From NCBI GenBank assembly GCA_041178425.1, contig JBEGVH010000020.1, positions 64,001 to 128,000 of the forward strand: a stretch of 64,000 nucleotides of DNA. Reading direction: 5' to 3'. The notes below the pieces were generated by a model. It did no database searches, had not been told where the DNA came from, and saw only the letters and a list, made by a program, of their open reading frames with translations. The stretch is from Pseudomonadota bacterium. Its GTDB lineage: Bacteria; Bdellovibrionota; Bdellovibrionia; Bdellovibrionales; Bdellovibrionaceae. Within the stretch, counting starts at the first letter, position 1; every line of letters begins with the position of its first letter. Position numbers and translations under genes: made by a program. Shown here piece after piece: positions 20,126-35,166 of the stretch.

Positions 20126-20202
20126 GCGGGTGTAGCTCAGTTGGCTAGAGCGCAACCTTGCCAAGGTTGAGGTCGTGGGTTCGAGCCCCATCACCCGCTC
20201 CA
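20126..20202 (+). tRNA. tRNA-Gly (GCC)
   Basis: GCGGGTG acceptor stem, D-arm AGCTCAGTTGGCTAGAGC, anticodon arm CAACC-TTGCCAA-GGTTG, GGTTCGA T-loop, 3' CCA. Confidence 0.97.
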
Positions 20203-20253: not shown

Positions 20254-21441
20254 TTAAATAAATTCATAAACTGGTATCGATCGCTCCCTTAGCGTTTTGA
20301 CTATCGAAACTACCTTAGCCGCAACGTAATCCACTTCTTCTTCCGTGGTGTATCTACCCAATCCAAAACGTAAAGTAGAATGAGCAATCCCCCGACTCAA
20401 ACCAATCTGCCTCAACACATACGAAGGCTCATGACTTGCAGAGGAACAAGACGATCCGCTTGAAACAGCCACTTCTGGCATTTGTTTCATGATGGCCTCA
20501 CCAACAATTCCTGCAAAACTCACATTCAAATTATTCGCGAGCCGCTGAGTGGGATGTCCGTTTAAATAAACCTGATCTAATTGGGAATTTAAGGCACGCC
20601 AAAGGCGATCACGCAAACGAATAATACGTGCACATTCAGAGCCCCTTTCTTTCAATGCTAATTCGGCAGCTTTGCCAAAACCAATAATACCAGGAACATT
20701 ATGGGTCCCAGAACGTAGACCTTGCTCTTGTCCACCACCATGTATTTGCTCGGCAATAAGTGATTCAGAGTACCTCTTTGAAGCGTAGAGCGCCCCCACC
20801 CCTTTAGGACCATAGATTTTATGAGCCGAGAGCGAAAGCAGATCAACACCCAAAGCATCAACATTTATCGAGCAGAGGCCTGCCGCCTGAACGGCGTCGG
20901 TGTGTAAAAACACGCCCTCTTTGCGACAGAGGTGTCCAATGTCTTGAATAGGATTAATGGAGCCAATCTCGTTATTAGCCATCATTATTGAAACCAATAT
21001 CGTCGTGGGGCGAAGCGCTTTTTGTACCTGCTCCGCAGAGACTTGCCCATGTTGATTCACAGGCAAATAAGTGACTGAGTACCCTTGGCGCTCAAGATGA
21101 AGACAGGCCTCAAGCACCGACTTATGCTCTACCGATGTTGTTATGATATGATTGCCTCTGCTTTTAGCCTTAGAGGCCAAACCCAAAATTGCTAAGTTAT
21201 TACTTTCAGTAGCACCAGAAGTAAATAATATCTCTTTTTCTGAAGCTCCAAGCAAAGTCGCAATCGTCTTTCGAGCACATCCAATTGCGCGCTCGGCTTC
21301 GCGCCCAAACGAGTGATTACGGTTCGAGGGGTTGCCAAAATGCTCCGTAAAATACGGCACCATTAATTTAAAAACTTCGGGATCAACCATTGTGGTCGAA
21401 TGGTGATCTAAGTAAATCGGAAATTTTAAACCCATCGCCAC
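20254..21441 (-). CDS. iscS: group I cysteine desulfurase (IscS-like), stand-alone
   Basis: IYLDHHSTT, FGNPS, FTSGATESNN, HTDAVQA, SAHKIYGPKG, RSGT, SSGSSC. Confidence 0.88.
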   Translation of the reverse strand: MAMGLKFPIYLDHHSTTMVDPEVFKLMVPYFTEHFGNPSNRNHSFGREAERAIGCARKTIATLLGASEKEILFTSGATESNNLAILGLASKAKSRGNHIITTSVEHKSVLEACLHLERQGYSVTYLPVNQHGQVSAEQVQKALRPTTILVSIMMANNEIGSINPIQDIGHLCRKEGVFLHTDAVQAAGLCSINVDALGVDLLSLSAHKIYGPKGVGALYASKRYSESLIAEQIHGGGQEQGLRSGTHNVPGIIGFGKAAELALKERGSECARIIRLRDRLWRALNSQLDQVYLNGHPTQRLANNLNVSFAGIVGEAIMKQMPEVAVSSGSSCSSASHEPSYVLRQIGLSRGIAHSTLRFGLGRYTTEEEVDYVAAKVVSIVKTLRERSIPVYEFI

Positions 21442-21631
21442 CGCCTTTTTGCACCAATCATGTTGAACTCTGCTATAATTCCAACAAAAACACCAGTCCC
21501 ACTATTAAACAGAAGCCATTTATATTTGTTTCCATTCTTGCCCCCCCTAGTACTAACGCAGAACAACAGCATTTAGAGCCATACAAATAAATCCCCTTGA
21601 CCCCATAGACCTATTGACTACTGTTTTGCCC

Positions 21632-22216
21632 ATGACCAATGCGATTACAGACTTTATCGGTGTTTTTAGCAATGCCTACTCCAGTGAATTTTGCGAGCAG
21701 GCCATCAACACATTCAAAATGGCTGAACAGTACGGCTTCACTGTCAACCGGCAGGAGCACGGCAACGCCAAAAAAACGGCTAAAGATACAAACTCTTTGT
21801 TCATCTCCGCCGAAACTAGCTTTGAATTATTGCATACAGCCCAACTCAGCAGCGAGTTTGGTCGCATTTTCTGGAGCGAAGTTTATCCTGCTTATGCCTC
21901 GAAATATTCTATTCTCGAGGATATGGATCCTCATCGCTATTACTGTTTAAAAATGCAGAATACAAAAATCGGAGGCGGCTATCATATTTGGCATCAAGAG
22001 AATAGTGTTATCAACCAAAGGCGGCTGATAAACTTTATGCTGTACCTCAACACAGTCGAAGACGGTGGAGAAACAGAGTTTCTCTATTACTCGCGACGAA
22101 TCAAGCCAGAAATGGGAAAAATTATTATCTACCCTGCGGGATACACTCACACCCATAGGGGTAACCCGCCCCTTTCGAATGAAAAGTTCGTGATCAACGG
22201 ATGGCTGGAGTTTTAA
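21632..22216 (+). CDS. 2OG-Fe(II) oxygenase (prolyl-hydroxylase-like, phage-associated type)
   Basis: GGGYHIWHQE, MLYLNTVEDGGETEF, YTHTHRGNPP, KFVINGW. Confidence 0.88.
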   Translation: MTNAITDFIGVFSNAYSSEFCEQAINTFKMAEQYGFTVNRQEHGNAKKTAKDTNSLFISAETSFELLHTAQLSSEFGRIFWSEVYPAYASKYSILEDMDPHRYYCLKMQNTKIGGGYHIWHQENSVINQRRLINFMLYLNTVEDGGETEFLYYSRRIKPEMGKIIIYPAGYTHTHRGNPPLSNEKFVINGWLEF

Positions 22217-22217
22217 C

Positions 22218-22562
22218 ATGACGACTATCGAAAACCTTCCTCTGATAGCAGAAAAAGATTATAAATATAGTTTTCCCTACGGTTACTGGGCCGAGCCTCA
22301 AATTCAAGTTTTAAATGGCACCTATGAAGGGCTTGTCTTCGACGTAATGAAATCAGGAGTGGGAAAATTTGCAAACGCCGATGATTATCAATTTACGTTT
22401 TCTTACCGAATTTTACGAATGTGGAAAGACGTACTCCCCGCTCAATTTGATGGCGCCAAAATCACTCTTCAAGATCATGATGTGACTTTTATAAGTAAAC
22501 TCATCTTGAGCTTCATCGAAGACTTTAACAAGAAGAAGAGTCATGGCACTACCCGGAACTAA
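22218..22562 (+). CDS. hypothetical protein
   Basis: 114-aa ORF starting 1 nt after the oxygenase stop and overlapping the next gene. Confidence 0.7.
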   Translation: MTTIENLPLIAEKDYKYSFPYGYWAEPQIQVLNGTYEGLVFDVMKSGVGKFANADDYQFTFSYRILRMWKDVLPAQFDGAKITLQDHDVTFISKLILSFIEDFNKKKSHGTTRN

Positions 22563-23451
22563 TCAATCGATATCGCTTTCGCAGGTCAATACAGAGCTGG
22601 GAAAATCCTCTACGGCCACCATCTCACTTAATGATGCTGCCGTGCGAGCACTGTTCGGTAAAGCAACGGGAGCCATCTCCTTTGCTGATGGCTGGGGAAA
22701 AATCAACCCCTGGACAGGAGCCATTACCTCAAATCAAACGGTAGTGAACCTTAGAACTTGGGCCACCAGCGCTGGTTGGAATGGCACGGTTCCAGCCATC
22801 ATCACACTCAATGCCAATTGCTATATTTACTCAGGCAATACAGCATCGAACGCACTCACCATTGATGGCTCTTGGCCTAATGGCGTGACCTTCGTAAATA
22901 ATGGCTTTGTGCTCGGTATGGGGGGCGCTGGTGGGGCAGGGGGCACAGGTTCAACGTATCCCTATTACACAACAGCGCCGGCCGCATTCAATGGCTCAGC
23001 TGGTACCAACGGAGGGAACGCTATTTCTCTTGGCGTTAATTGCACGATCGCCAATAACGGAACCATCGCCGGAGGCGGAGGGGGCGGAGGCGGTGGCGCC
23101 ATCACGCAATACCTACCAATGTGGGGTACATTTATTATGGATGATGATTTTATAGTGGCCGAATTCAGTGGCGGAGGCATGGGTGGGGGCGGAAAAACCG
23201 GACTCACGAACAGTACCGGCGGAAACGCAGGAACCTCAACAAATCCCGGCGCGGGAGTCACTAATGGTGGGGGCGGAGGAGCCTGGGGAACAACCGGGGT
23301 AGCAGGTACAGCACCCGCTCTACCCGCCAATAAAACATTAACAAGCAAAGGCACCCCTGGTGCCGGAGGGGCCGCCGGAAAGTGCGTAGCCCTTAATGGC
23401 TTTACGGTCACTTGGGCCGCCACCGGAACCAGAGACGGCGCTATTTCGTAG
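22543..23451 (+). CDS. glycine-rich phage tail-fibre adhesin-like protein (T-even gp38-like)
   Basis: N-terminus MALPGTNQSISLSQVNTELG..ISFADGWGK; VNNGFVLGMGGAGG, NNGTIAGGGGGGGG, GGGGGAWG, GAGGAAG Gly motifs separated by variable loops; no signal peptide. Confidence 0.78.
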   Translation: MALPGTNQSISLSQVNTELGKSSTATISLNDAAVRALFGKATGAISFADGWGKINPWTGAITSNQTVVNLRTWATSAGWNGTVPAIITLNANCYIYSGNTASNALTIDGSWPNGVTFVNNGFVLGMGGAGGAGGTGSTYPYYTTAPAAFNGSAGTNGGNAISLGVNCTIANNGTIAGGGGGGGGGAITQYLPMWGTFIMDDDFIVAEFSGGGMGGGGKTGLTNSTGGNAGTSTNPGAGVTNGGGGGAWGTTGVAGTAPALPANKTLTSKGTPGAGGAAGKCVALNGFTVTWAATGTRDGAIS

Positions 23452-23459
23452 GAGGCAGA

Positions 23460-23759
23460 ATGACGACAAAGTATGGAGTTTATAATCCTCAAAAAGGTGA
23501 ATACGATTTGTTTAAAACCAAAGAAGAAGCCCTTGAGGCTTTTTGGGAAAGAGTTATCGCAACAGCCAAAGAACATTACCACAACACCGCTTATACGACT
23601 ATTCATTACAACGAAGACGGAACAGAGACTTGGTTGAATGAGAGCGACCAAGAGATCACCAAAAAAAGAACTCTTAATGAGATCAAGGCGATTCTCAAAC
23701 ACGAACAAACAGAGATTCTCGCTAAAGCGCAACAAGTAAAAGTAGAGAGGTTCCCATGA
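23460..23759 (+). CDS. hypothetical protein (possible fibre assembly factor)
   Basis: GGAGG RBS then ATG at 23460; ATGA overlap with the next gene. Confidence 0.7.
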   Translation: MTTKYGVYNPQKGEYDLFKTKEEALEAFWERVIATAKEHYHNTAYTTIHYNEDGTETWLNESDQEITKKRTLNEIKAILKHEQTEILAKAQQVKVERFP

Positions 23760-24304
23760 GAAAAACCGCCAGTTTAGGGTATTTTGGCAACATTTGGGTA
23801 CGACAAAATCTGATAGAGAAAGCCGGCGATTCTTACCAAGGGCATACTCACCACTTTGACCACGTGTCTTTGTTAATAAGCGGCAAAGCCCTTGTTGAAG
23901 TCGAAGGGCACTCGCCAAAAGAATTCACGGCTCCCACTTTTATTGTTATTCGCAAAGAGGTTGAACACAAGTTCACCGCCCTCGAAGACAATACTGTGTG
24001 GTTTTGCATTTTTGCTTTGAGAGATATCGACGGCGAAGTCGTTGAAGACCTCTACGGACCACAGCATGACCCCTTACACGAATGGCGCAAACTCGAAGAA
24101 GACACGCGAGAGGAACTCCTCAAACAAAAAGAAAACGAGAGTGAAGAAGCCTACAGAAAACGAATGCTTGAACTCGATGAAAAAACAACTCAGATGATTC
24201 ATAACGCCGCAATCTGGAATGAAAATCGCAAAAAGAAAATGCAAGAGCTGCGAGATCAAAATACGACTCCCGATAATCTAGTGGCGACTCCAAACAACGC
24301 CTAA
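23756..24304 (+). CDS. cupin-fold protein with charged C-terminal tail
   Basis: GHTHHFDHVSLLISGK...EHKFTALEDNTVWFCI cupin His motifs. Confidence 0.75.
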   Translation: MRKTASLGYFGNIWVRQNLIEKAGDSYQGHTHHFDHVSLLISGKALVEVEGHSPKEFTAPTFIVIRKEVEHKFTALEDNTVWFCIFALRDIDGEVVEDLYGPQHDPLHEWRKLEEDTREELLKQKENESEEAYRKRMLELDEKTTQMIHNAAIWNENRKKKMQELRDQNTTPDNLVATPNNA

Positions 24305-24309
24305 ATACC

Positions 24310-24340
24310 AAAAAAAAAGGGGGGCCCAAGAGCCCCCTTT
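24310..24340. terminator. intrinsic terminator between convergent fibre operons
   Basis: A9-GGGGGGC-CCAAGA-GCCCCC-TTT. Confidence 0.75.
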
Positions 24341-24359: not shown

Positions 24360-25088
24360 TCAATAATCCCGACGCTGTGATTCTAATTCTCCAACACGGG
24401 CCTGTAATTCTTTAATGCCCTCAATAAGCAAGGGAATGATCTTTTCATATTGCACTGTTAGGTAGTTTTCACCCGAAATCGATTGATATTGGTTGTTCTC
24501 ATTGAGTCGACTATCGAAGGGCGCCAGCTGAATCGCCTCTGGGAGAACTTTTTGAATTTCTTGCGCAATCACTCCCACCTGCTGAGAACCATCTTTAAAA
24601 CCGTGAGCCTGAGCACGCGAGTTCATATTAAAATAGCAACCTGAGATTTGATCTATTTTTGCAAGCGCGCTCTCGATGGGGCGAATATTTTCTTTTAAAC
24701 GATAATCCGAAAAATAGGCGGTGATGTTATTGGTGGCGCGAATTTCACCAGCACTGCCAGCCGTTGTTCCCACTCCAATCGAAGACACCTGATAGGTATT
24801 TGCAGTTACCAAGGCTGAAGCCGAACTGGCGGTTCCGGCATTACCTGAGACATTGATTGACCATGTTCCCGAAGCACCAGTGCCATTCGTAGAGGGAGCC
24901 CCACAATCAGAGGCCACGAGTGTCACCGCTCCGGTCTTTCCAGCCACACTCGTCACAGGGGCCGATCCCACTTTTTGCCATGTGGCTGCACGGGCTGGGC
25001 GAATAAAACCCAAAATCATTTGAGAGATCAAACCAAAAAAACCGGTAATAAATGCAAATCTAAAAAAGTTACGTCGTTTCATTGTCAC
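24360..25088 (-). CDS. short tail-fibre-like protein with twin-arginine signal and C-terminal peptidase S74 intramolecular chaperone
   Basis: KRRNFF...PARA|A leader; VTSVAGKTGAVTL fibre motif; ITAYF|SDYRLKENI, VGVIAQEIQKVLPEA, YEKIIPLLIEGIKEL coiled coil. Confidence 0.88.
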   Translation of the reverse strand: MTMKRRNFFRFAFITGFFGLISQMILGFIRPARAATWQKVGSAPVTSVAGKTGAVTLVASDCGAPSTNGTGASGTWSINVSGNAGTASSASALVTANTYQVSSIGVGTTAGSAGEIRATNNITAYFSDYRLKENIRPIESALAKIDQISGCYFNMNSRAQAHGFKDGSQQVGVIAQEIQKVLPEAIQLAPFDSRLNENNQYQSISGENYLTVQYEKIIPLLIEGIKELQARVGELESQRRDY

Positions 25089-25251
25089 TCCTAAACAATA
25101 AAAAAATCGATGAGAATCCCGCGATCAAGCACGCTTCAAGTTGAGCCGACCTCTTCCTATTTTTGAGCCGAAGAGCATCTCACGTCAACGAGTTCGAAGA
25201 ATCATCAAAACCAAAACAAAAATAGTTTTTATTTATTGAAAGGAGCCAGAC

Positions 25252-26826
25252 TTATTTACAGACAAAGAGATCCCCGTTGGAATCAACGCCTAGACTTCCG
25301 GTGGGGGAACAATTAGAACCACTCGTCACGGTTCCCAACACCAAGTTAGTCACCCGAGCCGTACCATTAACATCGAGCTTGTAAGCCGGAGAACTCGTAC
25401 CGACACCAACGTTACCACTCGCATCGATTCGCAGAGAATTGCCACCATTGTTATATATATCAACCACGCCATCACTCGGTGAGAAAAACCCAGTATCCTG
25501 ACTAGCATCTTGAGTGAAAGCAAAACCACCGGCTGTACCCGCACCTTGGGAAGATAAAATTTTTGTGGAAGCGTTGATAATACCAGCTACATCTAGCTTG
25601 TAGGCAGGCACTGTGGTTCCGACCCCTACAATCCCCGTTGATTTCCAAATGCTGAGGCCAGGCAGATTAACATCTCCCGAAAACGTAGGGCTTGCTGTTT
25701 TAGCTGCATCAGTGATCCCGTATCCATCGATGGTGGTGGGCTTACCCGTGGTGATCTTATTCCAATCGAGCGAGGGTATATCCGCGGCCACTAAACTGCT
25801 ACCAGAGGTTACGCGACCTTTCGCATCTGTTGTCACTTTGGAATACGTGCCCGCCGTGCCCACCGACGCTAAAGTCGCAACGGCATTACCTGCACCTGAG
25901 CTCGTCACATCGCCGCTTAATACCGAAATACCATCGGTTATTCCGTAACCATTCAAGGTTGAGGGTCTGCCTGAAGTTATTATGCTCCAATCGAGTGAGG
26001 GTATATCTGCAGCCACTAAACTACTACCAGAGGTCACACGACCTTTCTCATCCGTCGTAACTTTGGAATACGTGCCCGCCGTGCCCACCGACGCTAAAGT
26101 TGCAACGGCACTACCAGTACCAGTAGTCGTAACATCACCACTCAGTGAGGTTATTCCACTCGTACTACCCGTTCCACCGCTGCTACCTCCACTACTGCCA
26201 CCACTGCCAGGCTGGGCGTATTTGTTCGATGTACCAGCAATCAATGCCAAAAGGTCGACGTAGTTTTGGTTTGTCAGAGGTGGTGCTGTAGCGCCTTCTA
26301 CTCTCAAAACGCCACTACTTGGAATTCCAGCAACGTTAAAAGTATCCAAGGAATGAGGGCTTGCCATTATTTCTACGGGGTCGACATTCTCAAAACCACC
26401 ACCAGGATCGAACGACATCACTAAATAAAGCTTGTCGCCCGGCACTCGTTCAAAGCCTCCAGCACACTGGGTTGAATTTAAAACTTTAAGATCTGGATTA
26501 AAGATTTTTCCAAAACTCAGTGGGTTCGTATCCGTTCGCTGACCCTCACCCAAAAATAACGAAAAGTACCCTGGCGATAAGCTCATGTCTTTTACGAATC
26601 TCTCAGAATAAAGAATACAAGTTTTGTTAGGAGCGGTGATAGAAACCATAAATTGCACATTGGTTCCAGCGACAGGCTGCCCGTTTCTATCAACGATACG
26701 ACCCTGATAATTCAGTCCCATTGACGATCGATCAGGGGTAGCAAAAGCCGCCGGAGCCGTTCCCAAAAAGTAAAGGCTAACTAAAATCAACAATGCTAAA
26801 TATCTTTGAATAACTAGATATTTCAT
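25252..26826 (-). CDS. secreted trimeric fibre adhesin, Bdellovibrio MAT-like, lacking an S74 domain
   Basis: Sec signal; LNYQGRI..CILYSE..GYFSLFLGEG N-terminal domain; LSGDVT/GTYSKVTTDxKGRVT/IPSLDW..YGITD repeats; GNVGVGTSSPAYKLDVNG beta-fibre repeats. Confidence 0.82.
   Translation of the reverse strand: MKYLVIQRYLALLILVSLYFLGTAPAAFATPDRSSMGLNYQGRIVDRNGQPVAGTNVQFMVSITAPNKTCILYSERFVKDMSLSPGYFSLFLGEGQRTDTNPLSFGKIFNPDLKVLNSTQCAGGFERVPGDKLYLVMSFDPGGGFENVDPVEIMASPHSLDTFNVAGIPSSGVLRVEGATAPPLTNQNYVDLLALIAGTSNKYAQPGSGGSSGGSSGGTGSTSGITSLSGDVTTTGTGSAVATLASVGTAGTYSKVTTDEKGRVTSGSSLVAADIPSLDWSIITSGRPSTLNGYGITDGISVLSGDVTSSGAGNAVATLASVGTAGTYSKVTTDAKGRVTSGSSLVAADIPSLDWNKITTGKPTTIDGYGITDAAKTASPTFSGDVNLPGLSIWKSTGIVGVGTTVPAYKLDVAGIINASTKILSSQGAGTAGGFAFTQDASQDTGFFSPSDGVVDIYNNGGNSLRIDASGNVGVGTSSPAYKLDVNGTARVTNLVLGTVTSGSNCSPTGSLGVDSNGDLFVCK
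25708..26157 (-). repeat. intragenic tandem duplication, 2 x 225 nt (75 aa)
   Basis: TTTGGAATACGTGCCCGCCGTGCCCACCGACGCTAAAGT identical at ~25837 and ~26062 (offset 225). Confidence 0.9.
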
Positions 26827-29838: not shown

Positions 29839-31350
29839 TCAGGTGGCTCTTTTCATTTTTCCATCGGTAACGAAACCTCCCAGAAAAGCTTGTTGGCCAA
29901 GCCTAAAGAAATGATAGGAATTGAGCGTCAGGCATACCAGGGCCAAAATCATAAAGGTGTGCGAACGATTCCAAAGATCATCAAAAAGAGTCTCCTGAAG
30001 AAAAAACTGCAAGCTGCCAGGAGATGCCGTTAAAGAGATGCAGCAAGCTAGATACAGTAAATGTCTCCGAGGGCGTATCGCCGCCTGCCCTAAATAGATA
30101 TCTCCAGCATGAGCCCCCTCTCCTATCCAAATTTTGAGTGCAGGCCATAGCGCATATATAACACCACCCAAAAAAATGAACGAGGAAATTAAATAAGTCT
30201 CTTCTATTAGATCGATATAAAATAAATGAATCGAACTAAGAACTAGAACCTGAGAAAGAATCAAAAAAACAATCTGTTGTTTCATTTTTACCCTCGGCAC
30301 GGCAAATTCGTAAATTGCGAGGAGCGTACTCAAAAAGAGGATTAAATATTCCCAGTGAAAGGTTCCATGCCAGAGATGTTTGATAACAAAGAAAACAGAC
30401 GTGCCTCCAAAAAAAACCAAGCTTGCATTACGAATGAGAATAAATAATCGATCGAGGTAAAATCCATTGAACGCATGAAAATAAATGCTCGTTGGCAATC
30501 TTTTGAATAAAGACCCTAATAAATCACTACGGCCATGATGCTCTTCGCGAAAAAAGTCTTCAAAGAAGCTCGCAGAGCGCAGATAGTTCCAAGTTCTCAA
30601 TACATTGTGGCCAACAATATGCCACAAGGCAAAGCTATGCCAACCTAAAGCAATTTCCATAAATATCAGTCCCACTTGTGAGATCGAGGCAAACGCAAAG
30701 GAGGTTTTTACATCACTCCGGCTCGATCCGACCAATAGGCCATAAATCGCACTCGTAAAACCAATTAAGCCCAAAAAAATCCTCAAAGAGGGGACGGAGT
30801 CCCAAAGGGACGCATGTTGGATCAATAAAAAGGCTCCCAGATGCAAAGATAGGCCGCCGTAGAATACGGTGCTCGAAGGAGTTGGCCCCTCCAAGGCACG
30901 ATAAAGCCAAGAAGAAAATGGAAATTGAGCACTTTTTCCGAGGGTTGCAATAATCAAACTGAGCCCCGCTAACTCATGCTGTTTGGCCTCTTCAAAGAAG
31001 ATCGCTAATACAAAAAAGATATCGCACATTTTGTAATTGGCGAGTGCAATAAGAGAATTTTCTAAACTTCTCACATTCGTCTGATAAAAACCGATCAGAA
31101 AAAATGACGCCAATCCTACCATTTCCCAGCCAATAAAAAATGTCTCTAAGTTTCCGGCGACCGCACAAAGAATAATACCCAAAGAAAAAAGAGTAAAAAG
31201 CATCCAATAACGTAAAACTCCGCGCTCGTGATCAAGATAGTTTTTAGAAAATTTACCAACTACGGCCAGAGTAAATACACTCAGCGCTAAAAAAATAGGG
31301 CCAGCACCATGAAGAGCTAAACTGTATTTACTGAGTAAGTGCCATTGCAT
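29839..31350 (-). CDS. dabB: DabB/MpsA-like proton-conducting membrane subunit (NuoL-like)
   Basis: FIGWEMVGLASFFLIGF, KSAQFPFSSWL..EGPTPSS; adjacent to the DUF2309 gene. Confidence 0.8.
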   Translation of the reverse strand: MQWHLLSKYSLALHGAGPIFLALSVFTLAVVGKFSKNYLDHERGVLRYWMLFTLFSLGIILCAVAGNLETFFIGWEMVGLASFFLIGFYQTNVRSLENSLIALANYKMCDIFFVLAIFFEEAKQHELAGLSLIIATLGKSAQFPFSSWLYRALEGPTPSSTVFYGGLSLHLGAFLLIQHASLWDSVPSLRIFLGLIGFTSAIYGLLVGSSRSDVKTSFAFASISQVGLIFMEIALGWHSFALWHIVGHNVLRTWNYLRSASFFEDFFREEHHGRSDLLGSLFKRLPTSIYFHAFNGFYLDRLFILIRNASLVFFGGTSVFFVIKHLWHGTFHWEYLILFLSTLLAIYEFAVPRVKMKQQIVFLILSQVLVLSSIHLFYIDLIEETYLISSFIFLGGVIYALWPALKIWIGEGAHAGDIYLGQAAIRPRRHLLYLACCISLTASPGSLQFFLQETLFDDLWNRSHTFMILALVCLTLNSYHFFRLGQQAFLGGFVTDGKMKRAT

Positions 31351-33586
31351 TTTTTAACTCCTCAGTGATTACGTCAAAATCTAGTGTCTTAGGGTCGATA
31401 CGAACCAAGTGAATCCAATTGTTATTTATGAGGTTTTGCAAACGAGCAGATTTTTGAATTACTTTTTGAAGGTTATTGGCCTCACAAAAAACAAAAGCAA
31501 GAAGTCGTAAGGGTTCGTGCTGGTCTACCATTTGAGTGGCTAACCCAATCTGAAGATCTCCTTTTGATCCGTGCATTAATCCGATTCCCGATGCAATGTT
31601 GAGCGGTAACTTACTGCCAGCGCCAAAGACCTTCGGAAAAGCACTCGAAGTAAAATAATCTAGATTAATGTTCGCACAAACAGGAAGCGCACTCAAAATA
31701 TCATAGGCAAGATTTTCACCACCTGGATCATTTTCAGGTTCGTAAGAAATTAAGAAGGCTCTTCTCTTCAAGTCTAAATCTTGCGTCAACCACCGGGGTC
31801 CAAACACACTCAATGCCACTCCGGTATGACCGAATTCTGGTCGAGGCTGAGACCAATCAAGGGACCGAGAAGTGGAATCAGCTGACGACTTTATTCGAAA
31901 TTGCCTCCAGCGCTCCGATGCATTAATTTCAAGGGCCTTTTTCATATCGTTACCAAACTTAATAAAGATCTCTTGATAATCTGAAAGTCGCTGATCTGAA
32001 CTAGGCGCATAAAAAACTTTATCAGAACAGGTGTCATGACAACATGCCAAAAATAGGGTGGAATCACTAATCAAAATTCCTCGCGATTTTAGCTCTGATC
32101 GCACTTGAGGATCGTTGGCAAATTCGGCGAAAACTTTGGCATTAGCAAAGCCCGATTGCCCGCTGCAAGCGCCACAACCATAAGATTTTTGAAACGGATT
32201 ATTAGTTGTCGTCGCCGCATGGCCAAGCACCATAACTAGGTTTGACTGGACGATATTCATGCCAGCCCCACCCAAAATATCCCTTACCAAGTCGGCTTTC
32301 TCAGAAAGAGTGTAGCCTTCGATAAAGCGAATTAAGTTATGCCCTTTCATAGGGTTATCGTAACGGAGCCAATCTCTGATTTGGCTATAGGTGGTAGGCA
32401 TGAAAGACCGCAACCAAAGGGCCACCATATAAAAGGGCCAAAAAAGAAACGACAAGAACGGCTCTATGGGAGTAAAGCGACTTTCATTGAGATGAGGAAT
32501 AAATTTTCTCACTTTATTTAAAAACGCATTATCACCCTCAGGTACAATTTCCTCCGCCCTCTTTCTAGGGGTTACCACAGGTGGGCATTGAGGCTGAAAA
32601 ATCACGTGCCCTGGTCTCTTTAACAGAAAATCGACTCCAAAAAAACCAACGGTTCCAAAGGTTTCATAACTTGGTTCAACCTTCTCCAGGGCGCGCCGCA
32701 GAGATTCCTCTCGATCATCGATACAAAATAGAATTTGCACGGCAGGCGCGAATTTCGAATTGTTCCGCTCAGTCATGCGACGCTGTTCTTGAGCAACTAT
32801 GTGAGAATGAACCTGAGAGATTGTCTTTCTATAAAATTCGATTTCGCTTCTGCGTATTTTTTCAATTCGCTTATTAATTGTTTCTTTTCTTCTCGGAAGC
32901 CGATTGAAATCCCAGATTCGCTGCCCACTTAACTGTTTTTTCTGCCTCAGTGCTTCTTCGGCGGTTATTAGCATGGCAACCCAATCCATTAGAAGAATAT
33001 CGTACTTTTGAATCGGAAAAACTTTTGGATTACACTCGAGAACCTGAATCATCCCACTCCAACCCTTGAAGTGAAAAATTAAAGCTTGTAAATGATTCGC
33101 CCAATCCTCTTTTCTGATAGCCATTCGAGATAAGCACATCGCTATAACCTCAACAGGCGATTGAGTTGTTAGCCGTTCAAGATCTTTCTTTAATGGCGGC
33201 AAAGCTTTCGACTTCAATGACCAGCTTGTTTTTATGTACTCACAATACCAATCCCACAGCCCTTTTTTCTTGCTGGGCACAATCCAACGATTCAAACCTT
33301 GGTCAAAGTAAGAAATCACTAATGGAATAACAAAGTCTTCTAGATCTCTCCAAATAACCCGAGTCTTTACTTCAATGGCATTTTCATACGTCAAAACCGC
33401 TTTTTCTAATCCCTCGCGAAAAGAGTAACGCTCCCAATACATAAGTGGATTATTATGCACAAAGAATGGCATCGGGTTCTGAATAGGAAGAAGGGGCCGA
33501 AAAGAATTGATAACATCTTCGATGGTCTGGAGATCAGATTTTCGCTCGGCCTGTTCCGTAAGATCTATCGACTGCATACCGATCAA
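31328..33586 (-). CDS. dabA: DabA/MpsB (DUF2309) inorganic carbon transporter subunit
   Basis: FVHNNPL, FCIDDREESLRRALE, GFFG, VLGH, CGACSG, HDT, DWSQPRPEFG, INLDYF, HEPLRL. Confidence 0.9.
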   Translation of the reverse strand: MIGMQSIDLTEQAERKSDLQTIEDVINSFRPLLPIQNPMPFFVHNNPLMYWERYSFREGLEKAVLTYENAIEVKTRVIWRDLEDFVIPLVISYFDQGLNRWIVPSKKKGLWDWYCEYIKTSWSLKSKALPPLKKDLERLTTQSPVEVIAMCLSRMAIRKEDWANHLQALIFHFKGWSGMIQVLECNPKVFPIQKYDILLMDWVAMLITAEEALRQKKQLSGQRIWDFNRLPRRKETINKRIEKIRRSEIEFYRKTISQVHSHIVAQEQRRMTERNNSKFAPAVQILFCIDDREESLRRALEKVEPSYETFGTVGFFGVDFLLKRPGHVIFQPQCPPVVTPRKRAEEIVPEGDNAFLNKVRKFIPHLNESRFTPIEPFLSFLFWPFYMVALWLRSFMPTTYSQIRDWLRYDNPMKGHNLIRFIEGYTLSEKADLVRDILGGAGMNIVQSNLVMVLGHAATTTNNPFQKSYGCGACSGQSGFANAKVFAEFANDPQVRSELKSRGILISDSTLFLACCHDTCSDKVFYAPSSDQRLSDYQEIFIKFGNDMKKALEINASERWRQFRIKSSADSTSRSLDWSQPRPEFGHTGVALSVFGPRWLTQDLDLKRRAFLISYEPENDPGGENLAYDILSALPVCANINLDYFTSSAFPKVFGAGSKLPLNIASGIGLMHGSKGDLQIGLATQMVDQHEPLRLLAFVFCEANNLQKVIQKSARLQNLINNNWIHLVRIDPKTLDFDVITEELKNAMALTQ

Positions 33587-33597
33587 GCTCCCTTCAA

Positions 33598-35166
33598 TTA
33601 CTTGTTTGCTTCACTTACTTGAAGGTCTTGGCCGTCTTTGAGTGGTGATCTCAAATTTAATTTATCTCCTGACTTATGTTCCTTTAAATTGCCTTTTAAT
33701 GAGTCTAAATTCTTCCATAATTTTTCGAGCTGCTCTTTCTTCACTTGCCCACCCGACTTCTCATAGCCCTCTTTCCATGAACGAAGTGCTTCTAATGAGG
33801 CGTGGTCGAGGTGATCAATATCAAGAACAAGATCGAGGATCCTGTTTTTCGGAAGTGCATCTAGTTGCCGAATAAGGCTGGGGACCCCTAAAAATGTCAG
33901 GGATCCAGTCACAGTCACTTGAATTGAAGTCTCATGATCTTCAACGTTCATATCAAATTGGCTCATTTTAATAATCAACATGAGAACCGTTAAGCCAAAC
34001 CCGATACCGATACCCCAAAGAAGGTTAATGAACACAACCCCAGCGAGGGTAACAAAGTAAACTAATGCCTCATTGAACTTCATTAGGTGTTTGATCTCTT
34101 GCAGTTTAACGAGATTAATTCCCGTGAAGATTAAAAGCCCTGCTAGTACCGCCAAAGGAATGTAAGACAAATAGTTTGCCATGAATGTAGCAAACAACAA
34201 AAGCCAAATTCCATGGAGGATTGCCGAACCCTTAGAAACTGCACCAGCATTTATATTGGCTGAACTTCGCACAATGACCCCCGTTACAGGGAGGCCCCCG
34301 AGAAGCCCCGAAAGGGCATTCGCAACCCCTTGACCAAAAAGTTCCCGATTGAGATTGGCTCGTGTACCAGCGTGTAACTTGTCAGTTGCAACGGCGCAAA
34401 GAAGTGACTCTGCGCTGGCAACAATGGTTAAGGCGATAGCTGAAAGAACAATACCCGATAGTTCACCCATTGATAGATGGGGAAGGTTAATTGAATCGAA
34501 AAGGTTCGCACTAATATTAACTTTAGGAACATCCATTGAAAAGACATAGGCAACCGTAGTACCGACAATGACTGCGACTAAAGAACCCGGAACGAATTTA
34601 ATCTTCTTTCCAACAAATCTATTCCAAGACCACAGAATACCCAAGGTAAGCAATCCCAGTACGAGTGCCTGGTTATTGCGATCCATGAAAGCATGTGGTA
34701 AGCCGGCCAAATTAAGAAGGGCAGACCCTTTGGGGGCAGCCCCCAAGAGCACATATGTTTGCCCTAGCACGATTAAAACACCTATCCCCGCAAGCATTGC
34801 CTCTATGACACTCGGAGAAATCGCCAAGGTTAATTGCCCGACCCCAAGAAAACCTAGTATTACCTGCATCAAACCAGCAAGTATGGTGATTGTGCAAGTC
34901 GCCTGAAATCCAAATTTTTGAATAAACCCAAAGACCATCACCGTTAGCCCCGCCGCGGGCCCGCTCACCTGTAGTGGGGCACCTCCAAACACACCAACCA
35001 CAATACCGCCAACGACGGCCGCAATCAGACCCGCCTTGATTGGTGCCCCTGACGCTAAAGCGATACCAAGTGACAATGGAAGAGCTATCAAAAATACCAC
35101 CAAGGAAGCAGGAATATCTACCTTCAAACTTCTGAAAAAGTTCACTTTTGATCCCTCAATGAACAA
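33598..35166 (-). CDS. SulP/SLC26 anion (bicarbonate/sulfate) permease
   Basis: VVFLIALPLSLGIALASG, QVSGPAAGL, GGLPVTGVIVRSSAN, short STAS-like tail; true start may be GTG ~35145. Confidence 0.92.
   Translation of the reverse strand: MFIEGSKVNFFRSLKVDIPASLVVFLIALPLSLGIALASGAPIKAGLIAAVVGGIVVGVFGGAPLQVSGPAAGLTVMVFGFIQKFGFQATCTITILAGLMQVILGFLGVGQLTLAISPSVIEAMLAGIGVLIVLGQTYVLLGAAPKGSALLNLAGLPHAFMDRNNQALVLGLLTLGILWSWNRFVGKKIKFVPGSLVAVIVGTTVAYVFSMDVPKVNISANLFDSINLPHLSMGELSGIVLSAIALTIVASAESLLCAVATDKLHAGTRANLNRELFGQGVANALSGLLGGLPVTGVIVRSSANINAGAVSKGSAILHGIWLLLFATFMANYLSYIPLAVLAGLLIFTGINLVKLQEIKHLMKFNEALVYFVTLAGVVFINLLWGIGIGFGLTVLMLIIKMSQFDMNVEDHETSIQVTVTGSLTFLGVPSLIRQLDALPKNRILDLVLDIDHLDHASLEALRSWKEGYEKSGGQVKKEQLEKLWKNLDSLKGNLKEHKSGDKLNLRSPLKDGQDLQVSEANK

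Follow-up and report, generated by a model that had tools for sequence, protein, structure and literature searches.

How could a phage-type adhesin that lacks an export signal leave the cytoplasm of the bacterium that encodes it? The question is raised by a short minus-strand gene in the window, by which is meant the whole 64,000-nt stretch analysed here (G000:C20:64001-128000, from a host genome of 3.06 Mb in 43 contigs). The starting point lies in the sequence itself, where one small protein has a short tip, an S74 motif that is intact and, ahead of both, a conserved leader of twin-arginine type. The original prediction held that this mini-fibre trimerises in the cytoplasm, binds a leaderless gp38-like protein and carries it out piggy-back by the Tat route. 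The reading favoured here adds a further partner, in that the mini-fibre would be a Tat-exported adaptor joining the signal-less adhesin to the cut-short end of a neighbouring Sec-type fibre; taken as a whole, the chance of this being right is put at even or marginally better.

The mini-fibre gene and its twin-arginine leader

The frame reported at 24360-25088 on the minus strand is real, being open for 242 codons. Its true start is most likely the ATG at 25082, which follows, at a distance of 5 nt, an AGGAG Shine-Dalgarno sequence (25088..25092, minus strand) overlapping the GTG at 25088, and which gives a product of 240 aa (24360..25082), equal in length to database protein P0002. This comprises, all on the minus strand, a Tat-type leader (residues 1-32; 24987..25082), a mature N-terminal strand with Trp35 (residues 33-39; 24966..24986), a dispensable linker (residues 40-92; 24807..24965), a phage-type (gp37-type) fibre tip (residues 93-124; 24711..24806) that ends GEIRATNNITAYF, and an S74 intramolecular chaperone (24363..24710). 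For the last of these, Pfam Peptidase_S74 (PF13884) gives 56.9 bits against a cut-off of 22, residues S125 and K130 of the SDxxxK motif are invariant across 70 aligned S74 rows, and the structural model matches solved intramolecular chaperones (MyRF ICA at E 2e-7; 3gud, 3gw6 and 4uw8 more weakly). The cleavage context claimed for it, ITAYF/SDYRLK, is confirmed, and removal of the signal (1-32) and of S74 from S125 onwards leaves residues 33-124, the 92 aa that had been estimated.

Eleven S74 genes were found in the genome, amongst which the mini-fibre is the smallest frame (the other ten span 621-3083 aa) and the single carrier of this tip type. Together with 11 matches to the Bdellovibrio MAT N-domain, described below, they suggest a Bdellovibrio-like organism. 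Elsewhere in the genome, three tandem S74-ending genes (G000:C9:255846-261789; frames of 621-688 aa), at least two of them with prepilin-like N-termini, represent pilin-linked S74 fibres, and a similar gene lies at C26:35738-38257. A 673-aa frame with a C-terminal S74 (G000:C26:82324-84345), possibly a fusion or overlapping frames, has an N-terminus that, from its motif and by eye, we take to resemble lipoprotein signal peptidase II.

Beyond this genome, four other 90 % clusters cover the full length of the mini-fibre (six sequences when cluster members are counted), and the family compared here consists of five proteins at 53-66 % BLAST identity. Mean pairwise identity within the five is 65 % for the leader and 71 % for both the tip and S74. 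The linker, the start motif of which recurs inside long fibres of the same bacterial family, is almost wholly missing in P0005 and P0006, where the mature part has shrunk to 43 and 48 residues, respectively. T34-W35-x-K37, by comparison, is invariant in all five proteins, those without the linker included. Members of this family are rare: a search of 400 phylum genomes at E 1e-30 (with up to seven candidates scored per genome) gave no close match to the mini-fibre, and a search of 150 family genomes gave none to the leader, with weak matches starting at residue 31 in nine. The leader DNA pattern was absent from genome and viral contigs and gave one unrelated match in metagenome contigs, whilst a related-locus search returned S74 and tip relatives only, none matching the leader. 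A leader-only protein search produced three candidates, of which only P0002 and P0003 carry it, and no further leader-bearing protein occurs among the best 150 of a 50 %-cluster search. The co-occurrence of leader, MAT end and adhesin described below thus concerns one genome plus close strain contigs (runs X3 and X6).

The leader, MKRRNFFRFAFITGFFGLISQMILGFIRPARA followed by Ala33, is present as originally described. Fifteen of its 32 positions are invariant in the five proteins, namely M-K-R-R-x-F-F-R-F, Gly14, Gln21, Ile23 and R28-P29-A30-x-A32, so that a KRRxFF motif (here KRRNFF) stands near every N-terminus; the arginine pair, the conservation of which had been proposed as a check, does not vary. 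Residues 9-27 form a run of 19 uncharged residues, followed by the invariant Arg28 and A30-x-A32. An arginine pair, a basic c-region residue and AxA are listed as Tat signal features in the available part of PMC7317946, and the TatP pattern, as quoted in the accessible text of PMC6085387, is satisfied by all five leaders. When a TATFIND-like rule was applied together with a ribosome-binding site to the 3201 ORFs of the genome, only five passed, the mini-fibre included; of the remaining four, two resemble ordinary Tat substrates and two are likely false. TatC and three TatA/B genes are encoded in the genome. From its sequence, the leader is therefore judged highly probable to be of Tat type, as first read, with conservation and the presence of TatA and TatC both in support.

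Were it instead a Sec signal or an uncleaved membrane anchor in which the arginine pair is incidental, the adhesin would be left without a route out. Curated Tat-signal HMMs (NCBIfam, Pfam) return no match for the five sequences at E-values up to 10, although short models are often lost to filters; with a mean Kyte-Doolittle value of 1.4-2.0 the h-region is rather hydrophobic, and the structural model renders the leader as one long helix, at low confidence. We nevertheless consider this very unlikely, given that RR, the c-region Arg and AxA are invariant in 5/5 proteins, and that the h-region holds the invariant Gly14 and Gln21, unlike the more hydrophobic leader of the neighbouring MAT-family fibre (2.83 versus 1.96 over 12 residues). 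A lipoprotein leader on the mini-fibre was ruled out, there being no Cys in residues 1-45.

The Tat-type leader appears to be an addition to a phage module, as no signal-like start is found in any of 39 complete viral fibres with this tip. The same is true of 130 further 50 %-cluster representatives, and among 123 collected proteins the leader is confined to the mini-fibre family. In the related strain of run X6, three of the four changes listed for the leader are silent and one replaces Leu with Val. The invariance of the h-region (Gly14, Gln21, Ile23) exceeds expectation for a signal peptide; judging from these residues, the region could be a binding site for a factor that postpones export while the adhesin has yet to be loaded.

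A signal-less adhesin and its proposed pairing with the tip

The proposed passenger is encoded on the opposite strand (22543..23451, plus strand; 302 aa) and is the sole match in the genome to PF05268 (GP38), at 33.4 bits against a cut-off of 25. In keeping with its description as leaderless, it has no hydrophobic N-terminus. Its structural model (mean pLDDT 75 from a 10-row alignment, with the glycine-rich part partly of low confidence) superimposes on S16 gp38 (6f45_D) with Z 19.4 and rmsd 5.2 for 227 aligned positions over residues 2-302, and Foldseek gives E 8e-7 for the same comparison. Phage PP01 gp38 follows at Z 17.9, with the next row, an unrelated one, at Z 8.8. The attachment domain, the beta-helix and the polyglycine sandwich are all present. 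According to the accessible text of PMC6851490 (see also PMC12032242), one gp38 of S16 caps the gp37 trimer through three tryptophans. The adhesin lacks these, having Trp only at 51 and 57, and 30 of 37 related adhesin N-termini contain no Trp at all; three IS[LF] boxes at residues 10, 27 and 45 may, from their number and placement, serve the three-fold partner role. Alignment of the mini-fibre with S16 gp37 is limited to the S74 part.

Whether such a tip and such an adhesin belong together was assessed in viral loci. At least 121 matched the tip pattern, of which 80 were taken and 68 kept once duplicates and loci with less than 400 nt downstream had been removed; 80 viral loci with other S74 tips, reduced to 72 by the same filters, served as controls. 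Only the adhesin gene of the window and seven neighbours taken from genome contigs went into the adhesin-start profile. An adhesin-type N-terminus was detected within 2 kb downstream in 37/68 tip loci and in 0/72 controls, counts in which related phages are not independent of one another and for which a Fisher test is therefore too favourable; in 30 of the 68 it begins within 150 nt. By eye, one control locus (L092) has a similar adhesin-type start. In the genome studied here, the adhesin gene and the one S74 gene with this tip lie 0.9 kb apart, in separate convergent units. Gene pairing of this kind, together with the S16 precedent, makes it very probable that the mini-fibre tip binds the adhesin, and the pairing first proposed is thus supported by both the fold of the adhesin and its co-occurrence with the tip.

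Among 150 other genomes of the order, 11 encode a related head, namely a gp38-like domain that lacks the attachment domain. Ten of these end a stalk of approximately 1130 aa, a repeat-stalk type that one genus of the family has in 10 of its 17 genomes (L326:4214-7606 in G259; L315-L324), and one sits on a 368-aa protein (L314:1459-2565 in genome G105); both head-bearing relatives examined have lipoprotein-type leaders. On sequence grounds, the long stalk with its gp38-like head is a candidate non-MAT prey adhesin. These relatives, in which the head comes with its own signal, stand in contrast to the present genome, in which the phage attachment domain is still in place but a signal is lacking.

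By analogy with known Tat passengers, it is fairly probable that the adhesin leaves the cytoplasm by hitchhiking with the mini-fibre. It could also be that the mini-fibre is exported by Tat and tips the MAT fibre, with the gp38-like gene being no cargo at all, but a left-over phage gene or one whose product has another exit. Docking is supported independently of the adhesin, the latter is encoded on the other strand beside three genes of unclear role, and no adhesin was detected within 2 kb downstream in 31 of the 68 viral tip loci, all of which would suit such an arrangement. We think it unlikely, however, because the only GP38 match and the only S74 gene with this tip are a mere 0.9 kb apart, because the adhesin retains the attachment domain that is missing in gp38-like heads with their own signal, and because without cargo there would be little reason for Tat, other MATs having Sec-type leaders.

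The adhesin belongs to a plus-strand operon opened by a phage-type 2OG-Fe(II) oxygenase (21614..22216), followed by a 114-aa protein (22218..22562) with a homologue between the tip gene and adhesin of viral locus L178. Downstream of the adhesin are a 99-aa protein (23460..23759), with an ATG and ribosome-binding site but no family match, and a cupin-like protein (23756..24304) with homologues near tip and adhesin genes in L012, L014 and L221. As the 114-aa and cupin genes have homologues beside tip/adhesin pairs, the operon seems to have been taken over from a phage tail region. A GC-rich hairpin with A/T runs on both sides (24320..24337, scored on the minus strand) lies where the two units converge and is likely, from its sequence, a terminator shared by both; promoter and terminator counts in the region show no excess over shuffles. 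In the start of the adhesin, X3 and X6 agree with each other but not with the window (22514-22629 and 23456-23465), even though the flanks in X3 are some 99 % identical, which suggests allele exchange at the adhesin.

The neighbouring MAT fibre as a probable docking partner

Upstream of the mini-fibre lies a 524-aa MAT-family fibre without S74 (25252..26826, minus strand). Profile search of the genome identified 11 Bdello_MAT_N frames, 10 of them above cut-off, and this is the shortest; it scores 74.6 bits with NF053851 (cut-off 60), with the N-domain, a beta-rich unit of approximately 130 aa in the available description (PMC10769870), following the signal peptide. Its leader is hydrophobic and without RR, as expected for the Sec type. 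The original prediction used this gene merely as a contrast, of which the Sec leader stands but the separateness does not appear to, since the first mature strand of the mini-fibre appears to complete the MAT C-terminal module. This suggests that the MAT is a third part of the same device.

Behind a shaft containing two near-identical repeats of approximately 70 residues (DNA ~26140-25720), the MAT C-terminus bears neither S74 nor any other family and ends in a cut-off module, C-x3-G-x-L-G-x-D-x2-G-x-L-x2-C-K-stop. The predicted socket (residues 500-524; 25255..25329, minus strand) stops one residue past the second Cys and is without a Trp strand. A first lead to PilV-type proteins came from a weak tblastn match of the MAT end (E 2-6). 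In 4/4 intact modules, two PilV-type, one in a phylum protein (L287) and one in a viral fibre (L308), a Trp follows five residues past the Cys. Of 23 loci with the Cys-module DNA pattern in viral contigs, only L308 has it in a long frame, and the other 22 were treated as chance; sequence search gave no solved structure matching the module. The phylum protein (L287:640-2394), which is prepilin-like, and its neighbour (3-635), from a genome of another family (G368), have repeated intact Cys...Cys-x-Trp modules. The motif that opens the mature mini-fibre, W...PVTSVAG, occurs in six distinct copies in long fibres of the same bacterial family. Two of these are directly preceded by an L..D..G.L hairpin spaced like the MAT end and a third by a similar one, the remaining three having a different hairpin.

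Strand complementation had been set down as an idea before the complex was modelled with 3+3 chains (MAT 425-524 with mini-fibre 33-124). The model scored 0.83 versus 0.54 for the best of three controls, a difference to be read with the caveat that halves of one split module tend to pass; the mark used for this score is reached by 116/157 solved complexes and 2/215 mismatched pairs, counts that hold only roughly here. Model runs agree in at least 97 % of contacts, with partner pLDDT of at least 96. On the mini-fibre side the only interface is residues 33-39, in all three copies, with Trp35 central, whilst the MAT contributes 500-509, 513, 515 and 518-524. On this basis the mini-fibre is predicted to plug into the MAT C-terminus, and we regard such docking as probable.

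The division between the two genes appears genuine. A frameshift or read-through fusing MAT and mini-fibre was ruled out: the mini-fibre begins 169 nt past the MAT stop, at an ATG that has a ribosome-binding site to itself and opens a conserved leader. The MAT stop reads identically in contigs from other studies, and no protein fusing a MAT with this tip occurs among the 120 matches listed (288-917 aa). In run X3, the Gly/Ser linker of the MAT is shorter by 12 nt, at 26183.

Two other relations between the genes deserve consideration. In the first, the Tat-exported mini-fibre carries the adhesin but has nothing to do with the MAT, the 3+1 unit being either released or anchored by other means. 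The separate ribosome-binding site fits this, as does a weak promoter-like site at 25188-25159 (such sites being not above chance there), and the best-scoring control at 0.54 was an unrelated 92-residue protein, meaning that the MAT edge is sticky in the model. Yet the mature mini-fibre has no other anchor, there being no Cys in residues 1-45 and no MAT_N domain (it gives no NF053851 match, and is by itself no member of the MAT family), the MAT has no recognisable tip domain and ends mid-module, and TW.K is invariant, leaving this decidedly unlikely. In the second, the mini-fibre would act mainly as a free-standing S74 chaperone working in trans on the upstream MAT, which has no S74 of its own. 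This is scarcely credible, given that many MATs have no S74 (8 of 21 in the accessible text of PMC10769870) and fold all the same, and that the tip, of a type that precedes adhesins, is conserved as well as S74 is (71 %). Docking of the mini-fibre on the MAT end thus remains the preferred reading.

A variable locus, the proposed assembly and related systems

Downstream of pgsA, the cassette is missing in two same-genus genomes and other genes are found in its place, marking the region as variable. It is carried by strain contigs from other studies (runs X3 and X6), with contig breaks within the adhesin and linker in X3 having been set aside as evidence. Metagenome runs containing the stretch come from freshwater, lagoon and estuary, and no RNA dataset is among the runs so listed. 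An IscS-like cysteine desulfurase (20254-21441) adjoins a tRNA-Gly (20126-20202); with 44-47 % identity to its best match in the two same-genus genomes, where the context differs, it is probably an extra copy inside the variable region. Further along the window (29839-35166) are, in a row, an NADH-dehydrogenase-subunit-like membrane gene, a 752-aa partner and a SulP-like transporter, which from their translations alone we take to resemble an inorganic-carbon uptake operon.

Such a setting invites the view that the cassette is a recently captured, decaying fragment of a phage tail beside tRNA-Gly, with no function as a unit. Phage relatives exist for all of the cassette genes, the cassette is missing after pgsA in the two same-genus genomes, and 400 phylum genomes hold no close match to the mini-fibre. 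Decay is, however, most improbable as an explanation, as every frame is intact and the cassette is present in related strains from other studies, and as the leader is no phage feature and is held at 65 % mean identity in five proteins, near the 71 % of S74.

We instead envisage a functional unit, assembled as follows. From S74 family biology, as set out in the available text of PMC10769870, three mini-fibre chains would trimerise in the cytoplasm and S74 would cut itself off after Phe124. One gp38-like monomer would then cap the exposed tip via its three-helix attachment domain, as gene pairing and S16 indicate. The folded 3+1 unit would cross the inner membrane by Tat, for which the available text of PMC4273604 offers the hitchhiker precedents HybOC and PaoABC and a substrate range of 20-70 Å, and signal peptidase would free Ala33. 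Something must hold back Tat export until the adhesin is loaded. The freed strand 33-39 is predicted to pair with MAT strand 520-523, Trp35 packing on residues 500-506 and Cys523, such that three strands would lock the adaptor onto the MAT trimer. The Cys506-Cys523 pair of the MAT would be oxidised outside the cytoplasm, and the finished fibre would be displayed like other MATs and bind a surface, probably that of prey; four secretins are encoded in the genome. The division into two proteins would follow from the need for phage tip and adhesin to meet folded in the cytoplasm, which Sec export disallows. In evolutionary terms, a predatory-type bacterium would have taken the tail-fibre tip and the host-range adhesin of a phage into its own service. 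It would have done so by dividing one fibre into a Sec-exported shaft with a socket and a trimeric, self-processing plug that leaves by Tat with the folded adhesin on board, the two being joined by three-fold strand complementation, a scenario to which we give an even chance.

In the titles and abstract openings of freely accessible papers, no description of a Tat-exported S74 fibre, a split MAT or a Bdellovibrio gp38 adhesin was found; neither 'Tat' nor 'gp38' occurs in the main text of the MAT paper (PMC10769870), and two of its supplementary files contain nothing relevant. If true, the arrangement is a way for a bacterium to put on display a phage receptor-binding module that assembles only when folded in the cytoplasm, and a structural adhesin would join the cofactor enzymes as a Tat hitchhiker. 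It would add a multi-gene architecture to MAT prey-recognition fibres, bear on the site of MAT folding and on the route of MATs to the surface, and link phage host-range genes to predator prey range. Adhesin and plug alleles could then be swapped between strains, or captured from phages, with the shaft untouched, and a 7-residue plug with a 25-residue socket would form a compact trimeric connector.

The closest known system is that of the Bdellovibrio MAT fibres (NF053851; PMC10769870), with which the locus shares, as far as the accessible text describes them, the MAT N-domain after the signal peptide and MAT-type repeats of the upstream gene, the S74 with SDxxxK, and a predicted trimeric surface fibre with a variable tip. 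Described MATs are, however, single chains with the tip in cis and the N-domain in all 21, whereas here shaft and tip are separate genes, and the S74 chain, which has a twin-arginine leader but no N-domain, would take along a monomer as the third component. An S74-ending trimer with a monomeric three-part adhesin recalls the gp37-gp38 tip of S16 and T2/T6-type phages (6F45; PF05268). Here, by contrast, the genes are chromosomal, with no virion, and convergent rather than tandem, the fibre is cut to 43-103 mature residues and given an export leader, and the attachment domain of the adhesin has three IS[LF] boxes rather than three tryptophans. As with the Tat hitchhikers HybOC and PaoABC, in the available account of PMC4273604, the proposal is that a subunit with a leader brings along a folded partner that has no signal; those are cofactor enzymes, whilst here an adhesin would travel on a homotrimeric structural adaptor that bears three leaders. 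The PilV/shufflon-type Cys-x-Gly-x-Cys-x-Trp junction module has the same spaced motif ahead of variable tips, but forms part of one chain, whereas here two proteins share it and an added strand would make it whole. In shufflons, PilV tips are swapped by DNA inversion. In the donor-strand complementation of chaperone-usher pili, each subunit lends an N-terminal strand to the fold of its neighbour; the complementation proposed here would differ in being three-fold, in a beta-fibre, and between a Sec and a Tat substrate.
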